From positions 1-63,513 of IMG/VR virus record IMGVR_UViG_2585427777_000008: a stretch of DNA of 63,513 nt; one strand, given 5' to 3'. Below, piece by piece: positions 1 to 39,194 of this stretch (position 1 is its first letter; every line of letters begins with the position of its first letter). Under the pieces are notes generated by a model, which saw only the letters and a program-made list of their open reading frames with translations, did no database searches and was not told the DNA's origin. This DNA is from a virus (Duplodnaviria > Heunggongvirae > Uroviricota > Caudoviricetes). The position numbers and the translations under genes were made by a program.

Positions 1-1079
1 GCCCCGGCCTGACCTACGCCAAGCTGTCCTGGCTGCAAGCCTGGCACATCCGCGACGAAACCTATTCGGCGGCCTTGGCCGAGCTGGTCAACCACCAGTA
101 TCGCCACGCCTTTGCCGCCCACTGGGGCGACGGCACGACCTCATCCTCCGATGGCCAGCGCTTCCGCGCGGGTGGCCGGGGCGAGAGCACCGGGCACGTC
201 AACCCGAAGTACGGTAGCGAGCCGGGACGGCTGTTCTATACCCATATCTCCGACCAGTACGCGCCGTTCAGCACCCGCGTGGTGAATGTCGGCGTCCGCG
301 ATTCCACCTATGTGCTCGACAGCCTGCTGTACCACGAGTCCGACCTGCGGATCGAGGAGCACTACACCGACACGGCCGGCTTCACCGATCACGTCTTTGC
401 CCTGATGCACCTGCTAGGCTTCCGCTTCGCGCCGCGCATCCGCGACCTCGGCGAAACCAAGCTGTACGTGCCGCAGGGCGTGCAAGCCTACCCGACGTTG
501 CGCCCGCTGATCGGCGGCACCCTGAACATCAAGCACGTGCGTGCCCACTGGGACGACATCCTGCGCCTGGCCAGCTCGATCAAGCAGGGCACCGTCACCG
601 CCTCGCTGATGCTGCGCAAGCTCGGCAGCTACCCGCGCCAGAACGGACTGGCCGTGGCCCTGCGCGAGCTGGGCCGGATCGAGCGCACGCTGTTCATCCT
701 GGACTGGCTGCAAAGTGTTGAACTGCGCCGCCGCGTGCATGCCGGCCTGAACAAAGGTGAGGCGCGCAACTCGCTGGCCAGGGCGGTGTTCTTCAACCGC
801 CTTGGGGAAATCAGGGATCGGAGCTTCGAGCAGCAGCGCTACCGGGCCAGCGGCCTCAACCTGGTGACGGCGGCTATCGTGCTGTGGAACACGGTGTACC
901 TGGAACGCGCCACCCAGGGGTTGGTCGAGGCCGGCAAGCCGGTGGACGGCGAGCTGCTGCAATTCCTGTCGCCGCTGGGCTGGGAGCACATCAACCTAAC
1001 CGGCGATTACGTCTGGCGGCAGAGCCGCAGACTGGAAGACGGGAAGTTTCGGCCCTTACGGATGCCCGGAAAACCTTAG
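1..1079 (+). CDS. tnpA: Tn3-family transposase TnpA, C-terminal portion (gene begins upstream of the window)
   Basis: Frame is open from the window edge to a TAG at 1077-1079. GC-rich unlike the rest of the window. Translation resembles the C-terminal region of Tn21/Tn501-group transposases and ends inside the terminal inverted repeat. Confidence 0.85.
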
Positions 1080-1112
1080 CGTACGATTTTTTCCGAATTC
1101 TGCGGGCTCCCC
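1075..1112. repeat. 38-bp terminal inverted repeat of a Tn3-family transposon (outer end GGGG at 1109-1112)
   Basis: Reverse complement reads GGGGAGCCCGCAGAATTCGGAAAAAATCGTACGCTAAG, the canonical 38-bp Tn3-family IR shape (GGGG...ACGCTAAG). Sharp GC drop immediately after 1112. Confidence 0.8.
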
Positions 1113-1382: not shown

Positions 1383-1458
1383 GGCCCTTTAGCTCAGTGG
1401 TTAGAGCTGGCGACTCATAATCGCACGGTCACCGGTTCAAGTCCGGTAGGGGCCACCA
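1383..1458 (+). tRNA. tRNA with CAU anticodon (closest in shape to enterobacterial tRNA-Ile2/lysidine type; elongator Met not excluded)
   Basis: 76-nt cloverleaf: acceptor GGCCCTT/AGGGGCC, D-arm GCTCAGTGGTTAGAGC, anticodon loop CTCATAA (CAT at 34-36), T-arm ACCGG/TTCAAGT/CCGGT, discriminator A, encoded CCA. G1-C72 pair argues against initiator tRNA. Confidence 0.85.
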
Positions 1459-1911: not shown

Positions 1912-2487
1912 ATGTTAACGGCGAACGATAACGCGTATGCAGAAGCAGATCTCATATTGAGTGACTTCATCGGTCAGCGGGAACGCTGGACACAAAAGCG
2001 AGAGGAACTTTATGCCTCGTTAGTTCGCAAAGGTGTCAACATTGAAACCGCTCAAAGCGGCGATATGACGGTAGTCAGTGTTGGATTACATGGTGTGAGC
2101 GTGTCCGCAGCCAATCATGAGCCATACGTAGCGTTATCCGAGTCGATGGCAAGGCTAATTAAGTTTCTGAAGCAAACAGAAGCCAATAATGTTTTCATCG
2201 CCAAAAAGAACATCAATTTTTCTGCCGCCATGTTCTGGATGATGAAGGGGCTGGATGCCCGCCGGGCATCATGGCCTAAAGGGAGCTATTTATCGATGTT
2301 CCGTGGCAGTATTGGCAGTAAAGAAAAGCTCGTCGAATTCCTGCCTGAAGAAGCATTCGATATTGTGGAAGGGTGCGATGTGATGGTTATGCCTCGGCTG
2401 GTAATGATGAATGGAGACTTACAGGCACAGACAGACTGGTTCGCCACTGGCGTGGATATTATCGCGACTGACTGGGAGGCATTCTGA
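1912..2487 (+). CDS. hypothetical protein
   Basis: 191-aa ORF with RBS-like AAGGAG upstream; stop overlaps the start of the next ORF (ATGA at 2484-2487). Confidence 0.5.
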   Translation: MLTANDNAYAEADLILSDFIGQRERWTQKREELYASLVRKGVNIETAQSGDMTVVSVGLHGVSVSAANHEPYVALSESMARLIKFLKQTEANNVFIAKKNINFSAAMFWMMKGLDARRASWPKGSYLSMFRGSIGSKEKLVEFLPEEAFDIVEGCDVMVMPRLVMMNGDLQAQTDWFATGVDIIATDWEAF

Positions 2488-2879
2488 TGTACGAGACTAC
2501 AAAATTAAGCATTCACGAAGTCTCCAATGTGGAGTGGAATATCGTCACCTGTAAGATTGTATCGTGTAATGCTACGCGTACTGATGCAGGCCATAAGAGC
2601 ACGATAACAGGCTACATGGTAATGGCTTATAGGGGATTGAGAGTTCGCTTTATCTGGAAAGCTCGGCAATTGACACCATTCAGAGAGCCGTCAATGCCAT
2701 TAGAGGTAGAACAGGATTATTTAAGCCTGCCGGAAATAGACGGTGCAACGCTGGTGGATTCTGATGGTCGTAAGGCTGATTTTGAAGTCAGCTTAAAGGT
2801 GGCGCAGGCCGTAATTAATAACTCACGTGGTAAGTGGATCGCTAAGGTAAAACACGTCGTTCGCTTATCTCGCTGGTAG
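2487..2879 (+). CDS. hypothetical protein
   Basis: 130-aa ORF translationally coupled to the upstream ORF. Confidence 0.5.
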   Translation: MYETTKLSIHEVSNVEWNIVTCKIVSCNATRTDAGHKSTITGYMVMAYRGLRVRFIWKARQLTPFREPSMPLEVEQDYLSLPEIDGATLVDSDGRKADFEVSLKVAQAVINNSRGKWIAKVKHVVRLSRW

Positions 2880-2909
2880 TGTTAGATGAATGGAATTAAT
2901 TTTCTAATA
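2880..2909. promoter_or_regulatory. operator-like inverted pair TGTTAGA-N16-TCTAATA
   Basis: Member of the dispersed TTCTAACA motif family; sits directly upstream of the 2988 ORF. Confidence 0.4.
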
Positions 2910-2987
2910 TAACCAACTTTTTGCCAGTCTATACAGAAATAACATTCTCATTATCATCCCCTCGGTCATTTCCTGCCTGGGGGATTA

Positions 2988-3380
2988 ATGGAGCATATCA
3001 GCAGCGCAGAAATTGCGGATATCATGATTAGGGCTGACTGCTATCTGACAGTCACCGAAATCACCACTCTAGCTAAAGAAAAATATCCTCACCTTCATGT
3101 TTCACGCGTAAGTGTAACCAACATCATTCGGCATTTTGTGCGGTCAAGCCGAGCTATTTGTGAGCTTGATGATCGTGTTTACCCACGGAAATACTGGTTG
3201 CATGGCCTGAACGGATATCAGTTCAAGGTGCGCGGGCGCACGCCTGAATACGGTAGCTTACTGGTTAAAAACTGTAGCAGGAAATCAGTCGAACAGGCGC
3301 GAAAAGAGCAACGAGAGCTGGTGGACATGGCGAATAAGCTGTGGAATGCCGCCGTTAAAAAGCGTGGTGTTGCTTTATGA
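2988..3380 (+). CDS. hypothetical protein; candidate late-promoter activator by position (Lpa-like)
   Basis: 130-aa ORF immediately upstream of pacA, preceded by an operator-like motif, as for lpa in P1. Assignment is by synteny only. Confidence 0.4.
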   Translation: MEHISSAEIADIMIRADCYLTVTEITTLAKEKYPHLHVSRVSVTNIIRHFVRSSRAICELDDRVYPRKYWLHGLNGYQFKVRGRTPEYGSLLVKNCSRKSVEQARKEQRELVDMANKLWNAAVKKRGVAL

Positions 3381-4741
3381 GTCTGGTTAATTGGGAGGAG
3401 CACCGCGCCCGCTTTATAGCGTTGCGTGAAGAAAAAGGGATCACTGTAAAGGAATACTGTGAGGAGCATGGCCTTAGCTTCAATACAGCCAGAAAGCATC
3501 TCAATATGAAAAAAAATGAGGTGCGGTCGCAGGTAAAGACAACAAAAAAAAGCACCAAATCACCTGAAAAAAAACGGGCGGGAAGAGCAACAAAAAAGCT
3601 GGAAGAGGGTGCAGAAAAAACAAAATTTACAGAAATTGACAATTCGCAGGGTGCAGGTTCTTTCCGAAGTATGCCAAGAAAGAAAACTTCGGATCATGAC
3701 AATAATACCAATAATAACAATGAGATAAAAGAATCTGTCAGGAGATCATGGCGCAAAAAAATGGCAAAAATGACCCCCGCCGAAGATAAATGCGCTTCAA
3801 AAACCGAGGGATCTTCAGCAATGATCCCTGGCGGTGCTGTGCAGCGTGCCACGTTGCCCACTACGAGTGTGGCTCGCGACATGATGAAGAACGGCGCAGA
3901 AGAGCACCTGCGGTTAGCAATTCAAATGGCGCAAGAACGCGCACTTCAGTACCAAAGCATTGTTGATCAGGAGGCCGAACGCCTACAGGCGGAGATAGAC
4001 GCCCTGGGTGATCAGCAGCCAGAAGGAATGCACCCTGGGCAGCGACTGCTCGGTCTAATCAGTGACGCGGCCTACTACATGAACGATTTTATCAGTAGGT
4101 TGGCAGCGATATATCAGTCCGAACAAAAGCTGCGACAGGGTGATGAAAAACTTCGTCAGGGTGCTCGCCAGCAAGCATTCAGAGAGGCCGAGGCCAAAGA
4201 AAAACTCGAATTAGCACGCCTACAGGCCGAACAGCGTGGCAAAGAGATTGAATATCGCATTGGCGCTGACGCACGCGCAGCCAGAGTTATCGCCGCCGCT
4301 ATACGTATGCGTGAGCGCGAGGAGCTGGACGATATCGGTGTTGCTGAATACATCGAGCGTCAGGGTGTCAGTGTTCCGGCTATCCTCGCGGCGCGCGCGG
4401 CGAAAGCTATCACTCTTCTCGAGCCTCCAGTTTCTGACATCAATGATGTTGATGATGAACAGCTGGACAAAGAAGCGAAGGAGTTTGCATCGCTTCAGGC
4501 TAACCATCCGCAATGGCTGGCAGAGCGCCGGGCGGATGTGGCAACCATTGTTGAAGATCTGGGGTGCGGAGATTACGACCACAATGGCGAGCGTAAGGCT
4601 GGGGAATTCGAGGCCAACGACGAAGAGTTGGATATTGACCCTTCGGCTACGGCTGAAATTTACGGTGATTATGATGCATCAGACGCAGGATATGACGCCG
4701 GAGATGATGATATCGCGATAGAACCGCCGGAGGACGACTAA
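3377..4741 (+). CDS. pacA: terminase small subunit PacA-like
   Basis: 454 aa with an N-terminal HTH-like region, central charged coiled region and acidic C-terminal tail; overlaps pacB start (ATGA at 4738-4741). P1 PacA-like architecture. Confidence 0.7.
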   Translation: MSLVNWEEHRARFIALREEKGITVKEYCEEHGLSFNTARKHLNMKKNEVRSQVKTTKKSTKSPEKKRAGRATKKLEEGAEKTKFTEIDNSQGAGSFRSMPRKKTSDHDNNTNNNNEIKESVRRSWRKKMAKMTPAEDKCASKTEGSSAMIPGGAVQRATLPTTSVARDMMKNGAEEHLRLAIQMAQERALQYQSIVDQEAERLQAEIDALGDQQPEGMHPGQRLLGLISDAAYYMNDFISRLAAIYQSEQKLRQGDEKLRQGARQQAFREAEAKEKLELARLQAEQRGKEIEYRIGADARAARVIAAAIRMREREELDDIGVAEYIERQGVSVPAILAARAAKAITLLEPPVSDINDVDDEQLDKEAKEFASLQANHPQWLAERRADVATIVEDLGCGDYDHNGERKAGEFEANDEELDIDPSATAEIYGDYDASDAGYDAGDDDIAIEPPEDD

Positions 4742-6249
4742 TGGCTGGTGGGCGCAAGATTAAATGCGTCACCAGCGATCCACGCTGGCGCGATATGGTA
4801 ATCAAATACCGCTACAACTTTACCCAGGCTGTTGTTGATATTTTCGGGATGTTTCCCTCCCACCAGCAGCAGGAGATTATCCAGTCCGTACAGCAAAAAG
4901 GGAGCAGAACCACTGTTACTTCTGGTCACGGTACAGGGAAATCGTCGTTAACGGCTATGTTGTTGCTGATTTATTTGATTCTGTTCCCCGATGCCCGTGT
5001 CATCATTGTTGCTAACAAGATAGGCCAGGTTAAAACAGGCGTATTCAAATACGTTAAACAGTATTGGGCGAATGCAGTTAAGCGTCACGGATGGTTACAG
5101 ACCTATTTTGTCCTGTCTGACACCATGTTTTATGAACGTTCCCGCAAAGGGATCTGGGAAGTTCTCTGCAAAGGTTATCGACTCGGTAACGAAGAAGCAC
5201 TGGCGGGGGGGCACGCGGCACATTTGCTTCTAATTCTGGATGAAGCATCAGGTATATCTGATAAAGCGATCGGCGTAATGACTGGCGCTCTGACTGAAGA
5301 AGATAACCGAATGTTGATGCTATCCCAGCCAACAAGGCCAAGTGGTTATTTCTACGATTCGCACCATTCTCAAGCTAAAACCCCAGACAACCCGAAAGGG
5401 ATCTGGACAGCAATTGTTCTTAACTCAGAAGAATCACCGTTCGTCACACCACAATTCATCAGGCAGAAACTCCTGGAATATGGCGGGCGAGATTCTATTG
5501 AGTACATGGTAAAGGTGCTTGGTCAGTTCCCTAGGGAGATTAACGGCTATTTGCTTGGTCGTGATGAATGCGATCGCGCTGCGCGGCGCAAGGTGTTGTT
5601 GGAGAAAAACTGGGGATGGGTGGCTACTGCTGACGTTGGTAACGGGCGAGACAAGTCAGTTCTTAATATCTGTAAAGTGTCTGGTCACCGGGAAAAGCGG
5701 CGTGTTGTTAACTTTAAGGTAATGGAAATGCCAGGGACTATGGACCCGCTGGCTTTTGCTGACTTTATATACAACGAATGCACGCCGGATAAATACCCGA
5801 ATATTACAATCGCGGTTGACGCAGACGGTTTTGGTTCAGATACCTGTGCGCAGCTGGTGCGCCGTGGGGCTAATCCGGTACGGATTCGGTGGGGGAAACC
5901 CATGTTTTCGAACAAAGACAAGGAGCGTTTTGTTAACCAGCGTGCCTACGCAAATATTATGGCTCGTGATGCCATAAAGTCAGGTCGTATGCGAATAGAC
6001 AGCGACCCTAAAACGGCAGAGCAAGCGTCAAAAATCCCCTTTTTACTTAATGAAGAAGGGAAGATGGCGATGATGCGCAAGGAGCACATGCGGCAAAAGC
6101 TGAACATCAAATCACCTGACCGATGGGATACCTACTGCTTTACAATGCTGGTGGACTATGTTCCTGCTAATGAAGATATCGGCGCTGAAATGGCTACCTT
6201 CCGCGATCAGGTTCTTGCAGATGTAGAAATGCCAGATCTGGATATTTGA
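4741..6249 (+). CDS. pacB: terminase large subunit PacB-like
   Basis: 502 aa with Walker A (SGHGTGKSS), Walker B (LLILDEASG) and a C-terminal Asp-rich nuclease-like region (VDADGFG). Confidence 0.8.
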   Translation: MAGGRKIKCVTSDPRWRDMVIKYRYNFTQAVVDIFGMFPSHQQQEIIQSVQQKGSRTTVTSGHGTGKSSLTAMLLLIYLILFPDARVIIVANKIGQVKTGVFKYVKQYWANAVKRHGWLQTYFVLSDTMFYERSRKGIWEVLCKGYRLGNEEALAGGHAAHLLLILDEASGISDKAIGVMTGALTEEDNRMLMLSQPTRPSGYFYDSHHSQAKTPDNPKGIWTAIVLNSEESPFVTPQFIRQKLLEYGGRDSIEYMVKVLGQFPREINGYLLGRDECDRAARRKVLLEKNWGWVATADVGNGRDKSVLNICKVSGHREKRRVVNFKVMEMPGTMDPLAFADFIYNECTPDKYPNITIAVDADGFGSDTCAQLVRRGANPVRIRWGKPMFSNKDKERFVNQRAYANIMARDAIKSGRMRIDSDPKTAEQASKIPFLLNEEGKMAMMRKEHMRQKLNIKSPDRWDTYCFTMLVDYVPANEDIGAEMATFRDQVLADVEMPDLDI

Positions 6250-6294
6250 CATCCTCCACGCCCTGAAGGACGGGGTTTTACGGCGCACCGGATA

Positions 6295-6316
6295 AAGCCC
6301 CGGCAATGCGGGGCTT
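6295..6316. terminator. GC-rich hairpin between convergent pacB and c1-like genes
   Basis: AAGCCCCG-GCAATG-CGGGGCTT stem-loop in the 70-bp gap between two convergent stops; T-run is weak. Confidence 0.4.
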
Positions 6317-6320
6317 GTGA

Positions 6321-7358
6321 TTACCAGAGTTTAGCGGCGTGCTGTGTTTGGGAGAAAGTGAACCCGTAACGTTCTTCTATGGTTTTACCGTATCTTTTCC
6401 GCGCGTCTGTCAGTTTTATGCCTGTCAGGTCATCTCCGGATGTCATCATTACGTCTAACAACTCCAGATCCATTTTATTCAGTCTCGCCATCGCTTCGCG
6501 TGCTGTCTGTATTTTACGCTCAATGATATGGCGAATAGCCGGATCGGCTTCCTCAAGCATTTTGGCTGATTTGTTCTTTAAGCTCTCATTGCGGATGTCG
6601 ATGTTTCGCAAGATGTATGACTTCGCAACATAGCTTGGTTGGTGTTTCTCCAGATCGCGAACGCGATAGAGACTAAAGTCACCAAGCAGGCCGCAAGGTA
6701 TCGACTCAACCCCAGAATAAATAGTAATGCTGCGACGTTCGCCGACATTATTAACAACGGGCACTGTGGTGTTCGGAAGTTTTGCGAACACTAAGGCTCC
6801 GTGTGCGCCTACCCTGAATCGTGACAGAGCATTGCTGCCTTCAATGTTTGTTGTAAGCACTACATCTGTGTATCCATCTTTGCGCGCCCGGTAAACTTCC
6901 CCTTCAGGTTCTGATGCGAAAAAACGGCGCTCTTCTTCAAGTGCACCAACAATCTGCGAAAATATCTTGTTTTTCAGGCTTTTCTTTATAATTGCATCAT
7001 ATTTTTTGAGCAGATTTTCGCGCGTAAATGAGCGGGTGGTGGTCGCGCTTTGCACAACAATATGCGTGCTTTGATTTGTGTCCTCGATAATGAATGGGAT
7101 CGGAGAATATACAGACTCAACAATGTTAGACGCTTTGCCGTCAGCGTTACGGCACAAGTCAACAAAGGCTTTCCATTCTGTGAGGCACTTTTCAGCTTCT
7201 TCTAGCACATTCTGATCATGTGTTAGTGCAACATGGCGGAATTCCTCGCCGGCATAACTGGTATCATGGAAAACAGAGTTTGCGACCACCAGCTCTTTCC
7301 ACCGTGCAGCGGTTTGCAGGAACCGTTTGTACTCTTTCTCGATCGACTTCTTACTCAT
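6321..7358 (-). CDS. putative C1-like immunity repressor (assignment by position)
   Basis: 345-aa ORF between pacB and the rox site, transcribed away from rox as c1 is in P1; operator-like motifs lie in its upstream region. No motif-level confirmation. Confidence 0.4.
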   Translation of the reverse strand: MSKKSIEKEYKRFLQTAARWKELVVANSVFHDTSYAGEEFRHVALTHDQNVLEEAEKCLTEWKAFVDLCRNADGKASNIVESVYSPIPFIIEDTNQSTHIVVQSATTTRSFTRENLLKKYDAIIKKSLKNKIFSQIVGALEEERRFFASEPEGEVYRARKDGYTDVVLTTNIEGSNALSRFRVGAHGALVFAKLPNTTVPVVNNVGERRSITIYSGVESIPCGLLGDFSLYRVRDLEKHQPSYVAKSYILRNIDIRNESLKNKSAKMLEEADPAIRHIIERKIQTAREAMARLNKMDLELLDVMMTSGDDLTGIKLTDARKRYGKTIEERYGFTFSQTQHAAKLW

Positions 7359-24549: not shown

Positions 24550-24643
24550 AATACTGACTGTTGCGCCCTGGCATTATCGTGGGGTATATTTCTACGGCAC
24601 CTTAGAAAAACGGGTGCCGGGATTGGAACCCCGGATAATGTCA

Positions 24644-24667
24644 AAGGCGACACAGACGCCGAAAGCG
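24644..24667 (+). terminator. rho-independent terminator
   Basis: AGACGC-CGAAA-GCGTCT hairpin followed by seven T residues. Confidence 0.65.
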
Positions 24668-24689
24668 TCTTTTTTTGTGTCACGCCATC

Positions 24690-24830
24690 GCACAGCCATA
24701 CGTAGCGTTTAGCTCAGAGATCAATGGTAGTGCTGGCTGGGCTGCCGAAAGGCAGGCCGGTTCCCTTTGACGCCGGTAGTTCCAACCCAGTCAGTGCTAC
24801 CGCCATTGAGATTGGAACCTCACGCGGTAG
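24690..24830 (+). ncRNA. candidate c4-like antisense immunity RNA (boundaries approximate)
   Basis: Structured non-coding stretch with a tRNA-like 5' part (GCGTTTAGCTCAG...) and a GNRA hairpin (CTGCC-GAAA-GGCAG). CCTTTGAC at 24755-24762 is complementary to GTCAAAGG at 24843-24850, which overlaps the Shine-Dalgarno of the icd-like ORF, and to an upstream copy at 24630-24637. Confidence 0.35.
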
Positions 24831-33791: not shown

Positions 33792-34697
33792 ATGAGATCA
33801 GTCGCTTTCAAAAACATCTTCATCTATCGTCTTTCACGTGAAGTTAACTGGAGTGCCGCAGAAGTATCCGATGCTCTTAGCAAATTCGTGTTTACTCCTT
33901 GCGGTTCTCAGGACACAGCTAAAGTCGGTTGGACACCTGTTCTTGGTGACAACCTCACCCATGAATACCAGGGTTTTCTGCTAATACAGCATAAGCGAGA
34001 AGAAAAAATTCTCCCCTCGCAGGTGCTCAAGGAAGAGTTGCAGAAAAAAGTCCTGAAACTCGAAGAAGAGCAAGCCCGCAAGCTGAAGAAAACGGAAAGA
34101 GACAGTCTTAAAGATGAAGTCCTGCATTCACTTTTGCCTCGCGCGTTCACGAGAAAATCACTCGCCAAAATCCTGATCGACCGCAGCAACCATCTGGTAT
34201 TCGTTGAGGCAAGCAGCGCCAAAAAGGCAGAGGACCAGCTGGCTTTATTGCGAAAGTCGCTCGGCAGCCTGCCTGTCATTCCATTCACACCACGCGAACC
34301 GCTGGAAATTACAATGACCGAGTGGTTTAAAAGCGGCTTCCCTGCCGGATTTACAGCAGGTGAAGACGCCACATTAAAGGGTCTGCTCGATAATGGTGGT
34401 GCCGTTCGCTGCAACAAAGTTGATCTACAGTCCGACGAGATTATGTCTCACATTGAGGCGGGGAAAGTAGCTACGACCGTTGCAATTAACTGGATGGACC
34501 GTGCGTCGTTCAGAGTCAACGATGATATGAGTATCAAAGCCCTGACATTCTGTGATGATCTCTATGACCAGAACGACGATATCGACCGGGAGGATGTAGC
34601 ACAACGATTTGATGCTGATTTCGTGCTCTTTACGGGCGAATTATCTGCACTGTTTAACGCGCTGGTGGAGGCCATTGGCGGTGAAGCAGAACGATAA
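33792..34697 (+). CDS. rdgC: recombination-associated protein RdgC
   Basis: 301 aa, colinear with enterobacterial RdgC along its whole length ([37 protein letters not shown]-terminal GGEA.R). Confidence 0.85.
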
Positions 34698-35361
34698 TAA
34701 CCGACCGCTTGTTGTGAGTCTTTGTGATTTTACGGGGGCAATGGTTGCCCCCTGGCTGGAATACGGTGTCGATGCCGCTATCGTCGATCCACAGCACTTA
34801 TCGACCAGTGACGAGCGGATGCAATCAGGTGCCGTTCTGACGCGTATTAGTGCGATCATCGATAGCGATGAAGTATACGCTTTTCTCCGTAAGAATTTGC
34901 AGCGCATCGTGTTTCTGGCCGGGTTCCCACCGTGTACTGACCTGGCTGTTTCCGGCGCGCGCTGGTTTTCGGACAAGGCTAATAAAGATCCGGTTTTCCA
35001 GTTCAAAGCAATGCAGGTTGTCTGGCAGTGTTATGACATTGCAAAGATGATCGGTTGTCCGTACATGATTGAAAATCCGGTCAGCAAAATATCGACATTC
35101 TGGCGTAAGCCAGATCACATCTTTCACCCTTACTTCTTCACTGCATATTGTCAGGAAGATAACTACACCAAAAAAACATGCCTCTGGAGCGGCCAGGGCT
35201 TTGTCATGCCTGATGCCCTAATGGACGAATCATTAGGCAAGCCAGATAACAGAATCCATGCCGCGCCACCAGGGCCTGACAGGGCTAATTTCCGAAGTGC
35301 TACTCCACATGGATTCGCAAAGGCAGTTTTCGAAGCGAATAAGGGGGTGCTCTATGAGTAA
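34681..35361 (+). CDS. short C5-cytosine methyltransferase-like protein (atypical)
   Basis: Motif I-like [11 protein letters not shown], motif IV PPC ([12 protein letters not shown]) and ENV-like ENPVS, but only about 227 aa with no evident target-recognition domain. GTG start is uncertain. Confidence 0.45.
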
Positions 35362-36259
35362 ATCTATAGCAAGCATAGCCATAGAAAAACAGGATACGAT
35401 GGCTGAAATTAGCTATATGCGCACCATTCGGACTCCGGATGAATATGAGCGTCCGATATTCAAATGGGTAGGTGGTAAATTCTCAGAATTGCCTACAGTG
35501 CTTGAGCATCTACCACACGGTAAGCGGTTAATAGAACCATTCGTTGGTGGCGGTTCCGTATTTACGAATGCAGGATTTCGCCACAACCTGCTTAATGATA
35601 TTAACGGTGACCTGATTAACTTCTATCAGACATTGCAGCGAGAAGGACATTCGCTCGTCACGCTGTCATATAGTTTTTTCAAAAATTACAACAACGCTGA
35701 CGCTTACCTCGAAGTGCGTGAGGCATTTAACAGAGGAAAATATGACCAGCTACATCATGCTGCCGCATTTTTGTACCTTAATCGTCACTGTTTTAATGGC
35801 GTAACGCGGTACAACCAAAATGGCGAGTTCAACGTGGGGTATGGCAAATACAAAGCGCCCTACTTCCCACATGCAGAGATGGAGGCATTTTTGGCTGATG
35901 ACGTACTCAAAAACACTTCCTTTGTATCAGGAGACTTTGCTAGCGTCATCGAGGCGGCTGGTGAAGACGATGTGATTTTTTGTGATCCGCCGTATGAACC
36001 GCTTCCGGATACAGAGGGATTTACCAGCTATTCAGGAAATAGCTTCCGTTTCGATGAACAAAAACGGCTTGTATCACTGTTGGTGGATGCCCACCAGCGC
36101 GGCGCTAAGGTAGTGATAACAAATAGTGGTGCTCCAAACATCCGTGAGCTATATGAAGGAAACGGGTTTAAAGTACATCATATGGCAGCCAGACGGTCGG
36201 TTTCCTGCAAGGCGTCAACACGTGTAGTTGCTAACGATATAATTGCAATAATGAAGTAA
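35354..36259 (+). CDS. dam: DNA adenine methyltransferase (Dam-like)
   Basis: Start at MSKSIAS (RBS AAGGGGG). Motif I region KWVGGK...EPFVGGGSV and catalytic DPPY. Confidence 0.85.
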   Translation: MSKSIASIAIEKQDTMAEISYMRTIRTPDEYERPIFKWVGGKFSELPTVLEHLPHGKRLIEPFVGGGSVFTNAGFRHNLLNDINGDLINFYQTLQREGHSLVTLSYSFFKNYNNADAYLEVREAFNRGKYDQLHHAAAFLYLNRHCFNGVTRYNQNGEFNVGYGKYKAPYFPHAEMEAFLADDVLKNTSFVSGDFASVIEAAGEDDVIFCDPPYEPLPDTEGFTSYSGNSFRFDEQKRLVSLLVDAHQRGAKVVITNSGAPNIRELYEGNGFKVHHMAARRSVSCKASTRVVANDIIAIMK

Positions 36260-36307
36260 AAAACGCCGCAGTAGCGGCGTTTACTTTTTCATGTGGCGAA
36301 ATACCTA

Positions 36308-37969
36308 TTAACCTAACTTCGCCCAGGTATCACGCAGCCCAACGGTGCGGTTAAATACCGGTTTTTCCGCCGTAGAATGGCGGCTGTCGAGGCAGAAATA
36401 ACCTTCACGCTCAAACTGGAATGCTTTACCCGCTACCGCTTCTTTCAGCGACGGTTCAGCAAAGCCTTGTTTGATCACCAGCGATTCCGGGTTAATCACC
36501 GACAGGAAATCATCCGCAGCACCTGGGTTCGGCACGTTGAACAGACGATCGTACAGGCGGATTTCAACCGGCAGCGCATGTGCCGCGCTCACCCAGTGAA
36601 TAACGCCTTTCACTTTACGACCATCTGCCGGATCTTTGCTTAAGGTGTCGGCGTCATAAGTACAGAAGATGGTGGTGATATTACCTTCGGCATCTTTCTC
36701 CACGCGTTCAGCCTTAATGACGTAAGCATTACGCAGACGCACTTCTTTACCCAGCACCAGACGTTTGTACTGCTTGTTAGCTTCTTCTCGGAAATCGGCG
36801 CGGTCGATCCAAATCTCACCGCTAAACGGCACCTGACGGCTACCCATTTCCGGTTTGTTTGGATGGTTCGGCATGGTGACCATTTCGCCTTCGCCCTGGT
36901 AGTTTTCGATAACCAGTTTCACCGGATCGATAACCGCCATTGCGCGCGGGGCATTTTCGTTGAGATCTTCACGGATGCAGGATTCCAGCGACGCCATCTC
37001 AATGGTGTTGTCCTGCTTGGTCACGCCGATGCGTTTGCAGAACTCACGAATAGAAGCCGCAGTGTAACCACGACGACGCAGACCGGAAATGGTCGGCATA
37101 CGCGGGTCATCCCAGCCTTCAACGTGCTTGTCGGTCACCAGCAGGTTCAGCTTACGCTTGGACATCACAGTGTATTCCAGATTCAGGCGCGAGAATTCGT
37201 ACTGGCGCGGGTGAACAGGAATGGTGATGTTGTCCAGCACCCAGTCGTACAGGCGACGGTTGTCCTGGAACTCAAGCGTACACAGAGAGTGCGTAATACC
37301 TTCCAGCGCATCGCTGATGCAGTGGGTGAAGTCGTACATCGGGTAGATGCACCACTTGTTGCCAGTCTGGTGGTGTTCAGCAAACTTAATGCGGTACAGC
37401 ACCGGATCGCGCATCACGATAAACGGCGACGCCATGTCGATTTTCGCACGCAGGCAGGCTTTACCTTCTTCAAAACCACCGGCACGCATTTTTTCGAACA
37501 GCGCCAGGTTCTCTTCAACGCTGCGATCGCGGTACGGGCTGTTTTTACCCGGCTGCGTCAGGGTGCCGCGGTATTCGCGGATCTGTTCCGGCGTCAGTTC
37601 GTCAACATACGCCAGGCCTTTGTTGATCAGTTCAACAGCATAGGCGTGGAGCTGATCAAAATAATCGGAGGAGTAACGGATGTTGCCAGACCAGTGAAAA
37701 CCTAACCATTCAACGTCGTTTTTAATCGACTCGACGTACTCGATATCTTCTTTTACCGGGTTAGTGTCGTCGAAACGCAGGTTGCACTGGCCTTTATAGT
37801 CCTGGGCGATCCCGAAGTTCAGGCAGATAGATTTCGCATGACCAATATGCAGATAGCCATTTGGTTCCGGCGGGAAACGGGTATGTACTGTGGTGTGCTT
37901 ACCACTGGCCAGATCTTCATCGATGATCTGACGAATGAAGTTAGTCGGGCGGGCTTCTGCCTCACTCAT
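36308..37969 (-). CDS. glnS: glutaminyl-tRNA synthetase
   Basis: 553 aa, full length, with class I signatures HIGH ([12 protein letters not shown]) and VMSKR; colinear with enterobacterial GlnS throughout. Confidence 0.9.
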
Positions 37970-38237
37970 TGTGGATTCCTCAAAGCGTAAACAACGTATA
38001 ACAGCGTATGATCTTATAAGCCGAATAGGCTGACAACCACTAGTTGATTAGAAATTGCTTTCTATCGTTATTTCAATAATGAGCTTTTTCATGAAGCCCA
38101 CTTTTGCGCATAAGTAAATTAATGACAAATGGTACACAATTGATACCAAAAAGGATGTAAAAGTGCACCAAATTAGTGGTGTATTGGTGCACCTTTGGTT
38201 CAAAACTTTTTAAGTTCTAAAACCAACCTGAAAGACT

Positions 38238-38525
38238 TTATTTTGCTTCCTCAGACTCCGCTAACATGAGGATAGCATGGCGGATCATATTCAATTTGCT
38301 GCGATTATGCTTTTTGCTTAACGCATCAAGTACCTGGTACTCGTATTCATTGAAGCCAACACGAATGGATTTAAAATCACGTGGGGCGTCCTTATCGAGC
38401 ACTTTGTTGTCTTCTGGTTGCTCACCCGGCACCAAATCAGCTTTGCTGGCAAAAGCCTCAATTCGGCGTTCAAGATCGAGGTCTTTTACTTCGGGGGCTT
38501 TTACCGATTTACGAGGCTTAATCAC
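38238..38525 (-). CDS. parG: ParG-like centromere-binding protein
   Basis: 95-aa ORF directly downstream of, and overlapping, the ParA-type ATPase gene; basic N-terminus. Confidence 0.55.
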   Translation of the reverse strand: MIKPRKSVKAPEVKDLDLERRIEAFASKADLVPGEQPEDNKVLDKDAPRDFKSIRVGFNEYEYQVLDALSKKHNRSKLNMIRHAILMLAESEEAK

Positions 38526-39159
38526 TTAATAACTCCTTAACCAACATCTGGATTTCACCTTTAGCTTTCCCGTTGTCCATCTCAACAACGCCCTTCCCTT
38601 CAGCCATACAATCGCGGTAAACCTTGCGATCGCGAATGATGGTTTTCAGCAACTTCAGTTGCGGATATTCAGCCAGGTACTCTTTGGCCTCATTGGCTTC
38701 ATTCACAACCGGATTGGATGGGGCCATTGTTAAGACTGCGCACGCCTTAATGCTAGGATTAGGCATCAGATCCAAAGCCTCTTCAAAGACTTCAACAAAA
38801 TGCGCCAGAGTGTCTAAATCTGGCTGAGATGGCCTGAATGGAACAAGCAAAACATCCGCCGCAGTAATACCGGTGCGCATTTCTTTGCTATCACGACCAG
38901 CGGTATCAACAACCACAAATTCATAACGCTTGTCCAGATCAAGAAGTGTTTCACGAATATTCCCAAACTTCTGGACGCAATGAATTACTGGAGAAACCTC
39001 TGCCGCATTACGGTCCGATGCCCAACGGGCAGATGTTCCTTGCTTATCTGCATCAAGTAGAACTACGTCCTTATTTGCGCGGGCAAGCTCCGCACAAATA
39101 TTTACGCTGGTGGTTGATTTGCCACAGCCACCTTTTTGGCTGGCTACCAATATAATCAT
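38518..39159 (-). CDS. parF: ParF-like small ParA partition ATPase
   Basis: Start taken at MIILVASQKGG; deviant Walker A QKGGCGKST; about 213 aa. Confidence 0.8.
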   Translation of the reverse strand: MIILVASQKGGCGKSTTSVNICAELARANKDVVLLDADKQGTSARWASDRNAAEVSPVIHCVQKFGNIRETLLDLDKRYEFVVVDTAGRDSKEMRTGITAADVLLVPFRPSQPDLDTLAHFVEVFEEALDLMPNPSIKACAVLTMAPSNPVVNEANEAKEYLAEYPQLKLLKTIIRDRKVYRDCMAEGKGVVEMDNGKAKGEIQMLVKELLSD

Positions 39160-39194
39160 ATCCGTTCCTCGGTGTGATTTTGGTATCAAAACGG

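Follow-up and report, generated by a model that had tools for sequence, protein, structure and literature searches.

A host-type glutaminyl-tRNA synthetase gene, probably functional, carried with its native promoter by D6-like phage-plasmids

Introduction

Morons are independent transcription units that lie between conserved phage genes, a concept that is said to stem from Hendrix and co-workers. Most of those described encode accessory functions (virulence, exclusion, and defence). In 2019, glnS, the gene for glutaminyl-tRNA synthetase (GlnRS), was described as a "moron" of D6-like genomes (PMC6799933), which include phage D6 and D6-like plasmid prophages such as pYU39_89 (Gilcrease & Casjens 2018, as cited in PMC6799933). 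A comparable gene is cysS on plasmid pBT1 of Salmonella Typhimurium D23580, where only the plasmid copy is required, the chromosomal cysS, though intact, being dispensable and poorly expressed (PMC6785131). Here, we analyse the glnS gene in a 63,513-nucleotide stretch of virus DNA (Caudoviricetes; IMG/VR record IMGVR_UViG_2585427777_000008, positions 1 to 63,513), referred to below as the window. Our results suggest that this gene is probably a functional, expressed, and selected second GlnRS, carried as a moron by D6-like phage-plasmids.

That D6-like phage-plasmids carry glnS is already known, because PMC6799933 has described the gene as a moron of such genomes; it is also routinely annotated, so its presence is minor as a discovery. 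Our literature searches on the function of D6-like glnS returned nothing beyond the 2019 paper. The question can now be sharpened to why a phage-plasmid retains a near-unchanged essential host enzyme under purifying selection. To what was known we add the retention of the native Dam-sensitive promoter, a single capture, gene conversion with host alleles, and relatives in which the site is empty.

Results

The window encodes a host-type GlnRS that is predicted to be active

The original prediction, made from the letters of the window, had proposed a complete, intact class I GlnRS of 553 amino acids with HIGH and VMSKR motifs. The open reading frame (ORF) list holds an uninterrupted ATG-to-stop frame of 553 codons at the following position, and the proposal was confirmed in each of its parts.

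36308..37969, minus strand: glnS coding sequence, 553 amino acids, intact (ORF, Pfam, TIGR00440, alignment to PDB entry 1o0b, motif positions)

The product scored 1067.3 bits against the glnS equivalog model TIGR00440 (cutoff 425.8) and stayed below the cutoffs of the GluRS models. PF00749, PF03950, and PF20974, which represent the class I catalytic domain and two anticodon-binding beta-barrel domains, were matched over their full length or minus one position, and the class I motifs lie at residues 41-44 (HIGH) and 268-272 (VMSKR). Alignment to the crystallised E. coli GlnRS (PDB entry 1o0b) ran from end to end with ~99% identity and five conservative differences. All 21 residues that we take to be catalytic or tRNA-identity determinants (R30, H40, H43, I129, L136, Y211, D235, K270, R341, R402, and others, in mature-protein numbering) are found in the window GlnRS. 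By score, by motifs and domains, and by recognition residues alike, the product belongs to Glutamine--tRNA ligase, a class Ic aminoacyl-tRNA synthetase.

Compared with K-12 GlnRS, the window protein carries V97I, I112V, S478N, D510E, and V552L and has lost the terminal E554. I97 and V112 are normal states in other Enterobacteriaceae chromosomal GlnRS, valine at 112 being the usual residue in Citrobacter, Enterobacter, and Kluyvera, and N478 and E510 of the window allele are absent from D6. In a sample of ten D6-like alleles (the window, D6, and eight plasmids, two of them from Salmonella), I112V is the sole internal change in the host-derived part that is fixed in 10/10. Nothing in the substitutions of the plasmid alleles points to altered specificity or to a resistant target. 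We predict that the window gene encodes an ordinary host-type GlnRS, fully active and with wild-type specificity.

A comparison of codon usage and GC content at third codon positions (GC3), which the original prediction had proposed, set the gene apart from its surroundings. GC3 of glnS was 0.617 versus 0.479 +/- 0.075 (mean and standard deviation of 54 window ORFs), a value topped by the transposase alone, and its CAG:CAA ratio was 14:1. The composition of glnS is foreign to the element.

The gene lies in a 1.75-kb cassette with its native promoter

Next to the coding sequence, the locus contains the following features.

36312..38045, minus strand: host-derived segment, homologous to the Escherichia chromosomal glnS locus (blastn, junction alignments)
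38008..38036, minus strand: predicted native glnS sigma-70 promoter (promoter scan; alignment to K-12, AF34, and E. ruysiae)
36261..36282, no single strand: bidirectional intrinsic-terminator-like hairpin (terminator scan, matches on both strands)

When the locus was compared with the glnS loci of K-12, AF34, and E. ruysiae by blastn and junction alignments, the chromosome-homologous DNA amounted to ~1.75 kb, reaching from 76-88 bp 5' of the ATG to 3-4 nt short of the end of the ORF. The 5' limit of homology falls at 38045-38057, varying with the reference, and weak similarity extends slightly further upstream. At the 3' junction, the C terminus reads AKLG* in place of the native AKVGE*. No trace of nagE or chiP, the chromosomal neighbours of glnS, was found at the window locus.

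The cassette keeps the chromosomal 5' untranslated region (5'UTR) and Shine-Dalgarno sequence as well as the promoter. The latter consists of a -35 hexamer TTGTCA (38036..38031), a 17-nt spacer, and a -10 hexamer GATCAT (38013..38008); both hexamers are those of the chromosomal promoter, and three substitutions fall within the spacer. The sole GATC of the promoter region (38010..38013) lies within the -10, and the promoter is conserved in 10/10 D6-like alleles. The chromosomal glnS promoter is derepressed in dam mutants and in Dam-site mutants (Plumbridge & Soll 1987, as cited in PMC12369378), and RNA-seq in a dam deletion gave a +1.08 log2 fold change for glnS (PMC12369378).

Downstream, the hairpin has a 9-bp stem with six GC pairs and T-runs on both strands, and it sits within the 48-bp gap that separates the glnS stop from the convergent methyltransferase stop. 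It does not stem from the chromosomal glnS locus, as the downstream alignment is without K-12 homology. An Rfam scan found no family at or adjoining glnS. With its insertion between adjacent genes, its own predicted promoter and terminator, and its distinct composition, the cassette is by its sequence a classical moron.

The gene is widespread at one position in D6-like plasmids and absent from some relatives

Identical copies of glnS (100%) occur on several complete ~90-kb E. coli plasmids, and copies with 98.7-99.9% identity occur on dozens more plasmids from E. coli, Shigella, and Salmonella. Against orf62 of phage D6, annotated as glutaminyl-tRNA synthetase, identity was 97.7% at the nucleotide level and 99.3% at the amino acid level, and the 4.5-kb stretch around the locus is 97.0% identical to D6 with the same gene order. 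The same gene occupies the same position in D6 and in more than 100 complete ~90-kb plasmids, which, together with the published description (PMC6799933), bears out the earlier proposal of cargo in a P1/D6-like phage-plasmid. Public assemblies contain the exact GlnRS protein in 579 indexed blocks; its carriers are contigs of mostly 50-200 kb, none above 1 Mb, and the 10/10 places inspected have a D6-like neighbourhood. Among ~119 plasmid glnS records, just one has a possible frameshift.

Relatives without glnS provide empty sites, for example E. marmotae plasmid pRHBSTW-00605_3 and several E. coli plasmids, in which a 95-amino acid gene and the Dam methyltransferase gene lie ~135 bp apart. Their flanks are 77-92% identical to those of the window, and the intergenic sequences align poorly. 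Because these flanks are too diverged, the empty-site relatives did not yield base-precise insertion boundaries, a mode of insertion, target duplications, or remnants of insertion sequences or attachment sites.

In complete E. coli genomes, the plasmid-specific flank was present in 92, always plasmid-borne (0/92 chromosomal), and glnS was found on 77-81 plasmids, so that ~85% of this plasmid type carry the gene. The statement that "all D6-like genomes" carry glnS is therefore a slight overstatement for the wider group. Chromosomal glnS was full length in 5,425/5,426 complete E. coli genomes, carriers included; strain GF4, for instance, has an intact 554-amino acid chromosomal glnS in addition to the plasmid glnS. 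One of the 5,426 genomes was without any glnS match, and a few had two or three places. Stable chromosomal integration through glnS homology was considered and not observed, the plasmid-specific flank being plasmid-borne in all 92 genomes.

Enterobacterial-type plasmid GlnRS is otherwise rare. We observed one case on Citrobacter cronae plasmid p.S175-1.4 (NZ_CP060445.1), a 98-kb conjugative plasmid (MOBP, MPF_I) with higBA, cysS, and glnS in a row at 1923..7155. Its glnS is Citrobacter-like (~90% identical to Citrobacter chromosomes) and represents a second, independent plasmid capture. Other matches in phage records were metagenome-derived contigs and 630-740-kb genomes of uncultured phages with distant GlnRS (50-57% amino acid identity).

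Plasmid alleles point to a single capture followed by exchange with host alleles

The ten D6-like alleles all have an intact reading frame of 553 codons, both junctions, the AKLG* end, and the promoter in common, and 10/10 share one haplotype over the promoter and the first ~430 nt. In the first 435 nt, ~20 single-nucleotide differences tell the plasmid gene from the chromosomal one. This 5' haplotype was not seen in the E. coli chromosomes listed from a search of 5,425 genomes. The sampled chromosomal matches to the plasmid 5' third reached at most 95.6%, most of them 90-95%, and identity over the whole gene to the E. coli chromosomal alleles found was at most 97.4%. Because the junctions and a plasmid-specific 5' haplotype are common to 10/10 alleles, the data point to a glnS cassette that was captured once from an Escherichia chromosome. 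The comparison with the host chromosome and other D6-like plasmids that had been suggested earlier thus favoured a diverged plasmid haplotype over a recent host copy.

In the 5' third, synonymous divergence (dS) from E. coli alleles was 0.21-0.25 versus 0.055 between K-12 and AF34, about 4 times less; in the same 5' segment, E. coli and E. ruysiae differ by a dS of 0.28. The plasmid 5' haplotype is ~5% distant from each of E. coli, E. ruysiae, and the E. fergusonii plasmid allele described below. The donor would have been a non-E. coli Escherichia lineage, or else the capture would be old. No donor species was identified in one genome-contig scan, which gave E. ruysiae alone among Escherichia species.

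The 3' parts of the plasmid alleles are mosaics of E. coli chromosomal alleles. D6 and pYU39_89 are K-12-like at 22/24 informative sites in nt 1020-1572 versus 5/34 elsewhere (Fisher p = 3e-9 before correction for ~1,650 scanned tracts), and the alleles of the window and pF374-2 are AF34-like in the 3' region. These allele comparisons indicate gene conversion of plasmid glnS from host chromosomal alleles, an exchange that may have gone unnoticed for D6-like glnS. We considered whether the K-12-like tract of D6 is an artefact of growth on C600; this was ruled out by the same tract in pYU39_89, which comes from a clinical Salmonella isolate and so is no by-product of C600.

Two further plasmid alleles were noted. 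The D6-like plasmid pEF-4 of E. fergusonii (NZ_CP137859.1) has glnS at the same site (2712..4376) with 554 codons and an AKVEG* end; this allele is ~5% distant from the other plasmid alleles and from E. coli alleles and retains the -10 with its GATC. Conversion by the E. fergusonii chromosome may have shaped it. The seemingly divergent Salmonella allele of pSa1423-90k (NZ_MK356557.1; 88-90% identity) was discarded as an error-ridden assembly: the record has single-base indels throughout, glnS in many frames, and 84 mostly tiny features.

Substitution patterns indicate purifying selection

The ratio of nonsynonymous to synonymous divergence (dN/dS) was about 0.03, with values of 0.02-0.05 in all Escherichia comparisons. 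Polymorphisms within the plasmid clade comprised 59 synonymous and 7 nonsynonymous changes, and those absent from the four chromosomal alleles compared comprised 25 synonymous and 3 nonsynonymous changes. The 5' third of the plasmid gene contains 1-4 nonsynonymous differences. In addition, Salmonella-resident plasmids hold intact E. coli-like alleles though the host glnS is ~85% identical. As judged by these patterns, plasmid glnS is kept intact under purifying selection. The unconverted 5' third is intact, as are the Salmonella copies, and conversion cannot account for the integrity of either.

Neighbourhood and carrying element

The gene is flanked by plasmid functions on both sides, and a plasmid-specific spacer separates the captured promoter from the partition genes.

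35258..36259, plus strand: convergent D12-class N6-adenine (Dam-type) DNA methyltransferase gene, right flank (PF02086, E = 7e-57)
38046..38237, minus strand: plasmid-specific spacer at the left junction, from the 95-amino acid gene to the captured promoter (no chromosomal homology; repeats; mini-ORF)
38238..39189, minus strand: ParA-type ATPase gene (38518..39189) and its 95-amino acid partner (38238..38525), left flank (Pfam, NCBIfam)

One flank consists of RdgC (PF04381), an ORF without a family match, and the methyltransferase; on the other, the ParA-type ATPase and its partner are followed by StbB/ParM (Pfam). As had been proposed, these neighbours are mobile-element genes on both sides and none is chromosomal, nagE and chiP being absent. 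The label parFG, which the original prediction had given to this pair, is tentative. A type Ib locus of this kind combines a small ParA-type Walker ATPase with a small centromere-binding protein of the ribbon-helix-helix class; the ATPase matched ParA-type models but scored 157.8 against ParA_partition NF041546 (cutoff 180), and its 95-amino acid partner matched no Pfam or NCBIfam family.

The spacer is partly alignable to the empty-site relatives. It contains GTGCACC-bearing repeats at 38156..38202, just downstream of the 95-amino acid partition-locus gene, where one motif is repeated directly (38156-38169, 38180-38193) and 13 nt recur in inverted orientation (38159-38171, 38184-38196); the empty-site relatives have comparable GTGTACC/TGGTG motifs at the same position. 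The repeat region, which the glnS cassette directly adjoins, may be a candidate partition site or operator. A 14-codon mini-ORF on the minus strand (38092..38048, MKKLIIEITIESNF) spans the 5' limit of chromosomal homology and ends ~10 nt upstream of the captured -35; it may be a chance occurrence.

In the methyltransferase region (34609..36259), two ORFs overlap, one of 250 amino acids without a family match and the D12-class one of 333 amino acids. Some relatives, empty-site ones included, have a single 2289-nt Dam-family gene right after rdgC, and the identical plasmid NZ_CP069886.1 has no coding sequence in PLSDB over part of this stretch.

The carrying element belongs to the D6-like subgroup of P1-family phage-plasmids, because it combines similarity to D6, synteny at the locus, and a P1-type immunity RNA. 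Rfam placed a C4 antisense RNA at 24720..24807; isrK lies back to back with it at 24597..24675, and the two form a P1-type ImmI immunity RNA region. Related plasmids are ~90 kb, non-mobilizable, and of rep_cluster_1704. The first 1,112 nt of the window (1..1112) hold the 3' end of a GC-rich (66%) Tn3-family transposase gene (PF01526, E = 6e-138), with a 38-bp terminal inverted repeat at 1075..1112 (GGGGAGCCCGCAGAATTCGGAAAAAATCGTACGCTAAG, reverse complement). The present copy of the element therefore harbours a transposon of the Tn21/Tn1721 type, which may bring resistance cargo that would lie upstream of the window. Its insertion lies ~270 bp from a tRNA gene.

This tRNA, at 1383..1458, has the CAU anticodon that had been noted previously, where it was read as part of a wider investment in translation. 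ARAGORN called it tRNA-Met; tRNA-Ile is the PGAP annotation of the identical plasmid copies, and the sequence shares 89.5% identity with chromosomal tRNA-Ile(CAU). Going by this similarity, it is most likely a lysidine-dependent AUA decoder, as in P1. The presence of the tRNA was confirmed, and the wider investment found little support, since an AUA-decoding tRNA-Ile gives no evidence for a glutamine-related translation module.

Discussion

The locus analysed here is probably a second GlnRS gene that D6-like phage-plasmids express and that selection maintains. Its origin may be described as a ~1.75-kb cassette, made up of the native promoter, the 5'UTR, and glnS short of its last codons, that was put between a type-Ib-like par locus and a Dam-type methyltransferase gene. 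In the plasmid-prophage state, transcription would start at the cassette's own promoter and terminate at the hairpin held in common with the methyltransferase gene, giving lysogens about one extra GlnRS gene dose. Lytic replication would bring many copies, and the dose would rise with copy number. The promoter would also be more active at this stage because it is Dam-repressible and new DNA is transiently under-methylated; the adjoining Dam-type methyltransferase may modulate its activity. A dosage benefit, one of the functions suggested in the original prediction, is plausible and would be the most likely consequence of the additional gene.

Several points weigh against this interpretation. 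The literature searched holds no data on expression, activity, or fitness effects of the plasmid copy and no transcript data for D6-like lysogens, and the promoter and terminator are predictions from consensus and homology. The low dN/dS between plasmid and chromosome could be partly older than the capture, and it could be upheld by repeated conversion from a selected chromosomal copy; the private polymorphisms, moreover, are private with respect to four chromosomal alleles only. About 15% of the related plasmids in complete E. coli genomes are apparently without glnS, and the gene is therefore dispensable for this type of element. Glutamine makes up 3.8% of the residues in the other 53 ORFs of the element, with a CAG share of 57%, which indicates no unusual demand for glutaminyl-tRNA and ruled out a glutamine-rich phage proteome as its source.

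A takeover of the host function, in which plasmid glnS becomes the expressed copy, the chromosomal gene is down-regulated, loss or mutation of the plasmid gene becomes costly, and the element is stabilised, was raised for D6-like glnS by the authors of PMC6799933, was suggested as addiction in the original prediction, and has its precedent in pBT1 cysS (PMC6785131). The surroundings of the gene would suit such a role: it adjoins two partition loci with toxin-antitoxin systems near, and the Citrobacter conjugative plasmid has cysS and glnS together beside higBA. Nevertheless, we consider a takeover unlikely. With a single exception, chromosomal glnS is full length throughout the 5,426 complete E. 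coli genomes, GF4 and other carriers among them, no mechanism that would silence it is visible in the sequence, and curing of pBT1 itself carried no cost. At ~99% identity with conservative changes, the plasmid GlnRS is, judged by its sequence, not biochemically distinct from the host enzyme, unlike the weaker and less stable CysRS-pBT1. Since every complete genome with a glnS match retains the chromosomal gene, any dependence would lie at the level of expression, as with pBT1 cysS. A more elaborate reading, to which we give a similarly small chance, would make glnS a translation-capacity switch under the control of the element, whose Dam-repressible promoter, next to the element's own methyltransferase, is low in the methylated prophage and bursts after induction, and/or an addiction factor through displacement of chromosomal expression like that by pBT1 cysS; conversion would keep the enzyme matched to the host. 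If true, displacement of the chromosomal copy would let a phage-plasmid use an essential housekeeping enzyme for addiction.

The gene might instead be a neutral or selfish hitchhiker that confers no benefit, became fixed at an early stage of the D6 subgroup, does no harm at low copy number, and is continually repaired by conversion from the selected chromosomal copy, serving at most as a patch of core-genome homology. The mosaic 3' halves, which reflect ongoing exchange with chromosomal alleles, and the natural occurrence of related plasmids without glnS fit this idea. We regard it as improbable, as the 5' third has remained distinct (dS ~0.21-0.25 versus 0.055 within E. coli) with its 1-4 nonsynonymous differences, the plasmids resident in Salmonella keep intact E. 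coli-like alleles beside a host copy of ~85% identity, and a possible frameshift affects only 1 of ~119 plasmid records; a homology patch, in turn, is at odds with the 0/92 chromosomal occurrences of the plasmid-specific flank, which give no sign of stable integration. An immune variant, an altered target that would shield the cell or phage from a toxin, an antibiotic, or a defence system, would have parallels in resistant synthetase copies borne on plasmids or in clusters, such as mupirocin-resistant IleRS. It is very unlikely here, and the suggestion in the original prediction that the gene protects from GlnRS-targeting toxins or inhibitors is disfavoured: the product departs from K-12 only by V97I, I112V, S478N, D510E, V552L, and the loss of E554, two of these states (I97 and V112) are ordinary in other Enterobacteriaceae, N478 and E510 do not occur in D6, I112V alone is fixed internally, and the catalytic and identity residues listed above are all unchanged. 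We know of no toxin that targets GlnRS. Finally, a host-like codon usage, and nothing else that we found, would fit a chimeric chromosome-plasmid contig or a recent chance pick-up of host DNA. This can practically be dismissed. The check for a chimera showed identical junctions in D6, at 10/10 public-assembly places, and in over 100 complete circular plasmids of E. coli, Shigella, and Salmonella, each assembled independently; chromosomal homology is limited to 1.75 kb without nagE or chiP flanks; and the allele is unlike the E. coli chromosomal ones found (at most 97.4% overall, with sampled 5'-third matches of at most 95.6%). Both the chimera and the recent pick-up are refuted by the common junctions and the plasmid-specific haplotype.

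A functional second GlnRS thus remains our preferred interpretation, and the close relatives without glnS offer natural isogenic-like comparators for it. Together with pBT1 cysS and the Citrobacter cysS-glnS plasmid, the D6-like gene is one of a small number of plasmid-borne genes for aminoacyl-tRNA synthetases, a class that is poorly understood.

Among described loci, D6 orf62 and pYU39_89 glnS share with the window gene its position, both junctions, and a 553-amino acid product ending in AKLG. The differences at glnS are allelic only, the window allele having N478, E510, and an AF34-like 3' half where theirs is K-12-like; the window element also differs from its D6-like kin by the Tn3-family transposon at the window start. 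With chromosomal glnS of K-12 (b0680), the window copy has in common the enzyme (bar five substitutions and E554), the promoter hexamers, the GATC in the -10, the 5'UTR, and the Shine-Dalgarno sequence. It lacks the native 3' end and terminator as well as all DNA further upstream than about -50, counted from the -10, and it differs in three spacer substitutions, in AKLG* versus AKVGE*, and in its phage-plasmid context. Its 5' third stands at about between-species divergence from E. coli (dS ~0.22 versus 0.28 for E. coli-E. ruysiae).

Like phage morons, the glnS cassette has its own promoter and terminator, lies between genes that are adjacent in relatives, has a distinct composition, and serves a host-cell function; in contrast to typical morons, it is a second copy of a core gene that is essential and with which it still recombines. 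Like pBT1 cysS, it encodes a complete aminoacyl-tRNA synthetase on a large low-copy plasmid beside an intact chromosomal paralogue (PMC6785131). However, pBT1 is not a phage-plasmid, and CysRS-pBT1 is experimentally required, less efficient, and less stable, whereas the D6-like GlnRS is by sequence near-identical to that of the host. On plasmid p.S175-1.4, glnS is paired with cysS, the same kind of synthetase gene as the essential one on pBT1.

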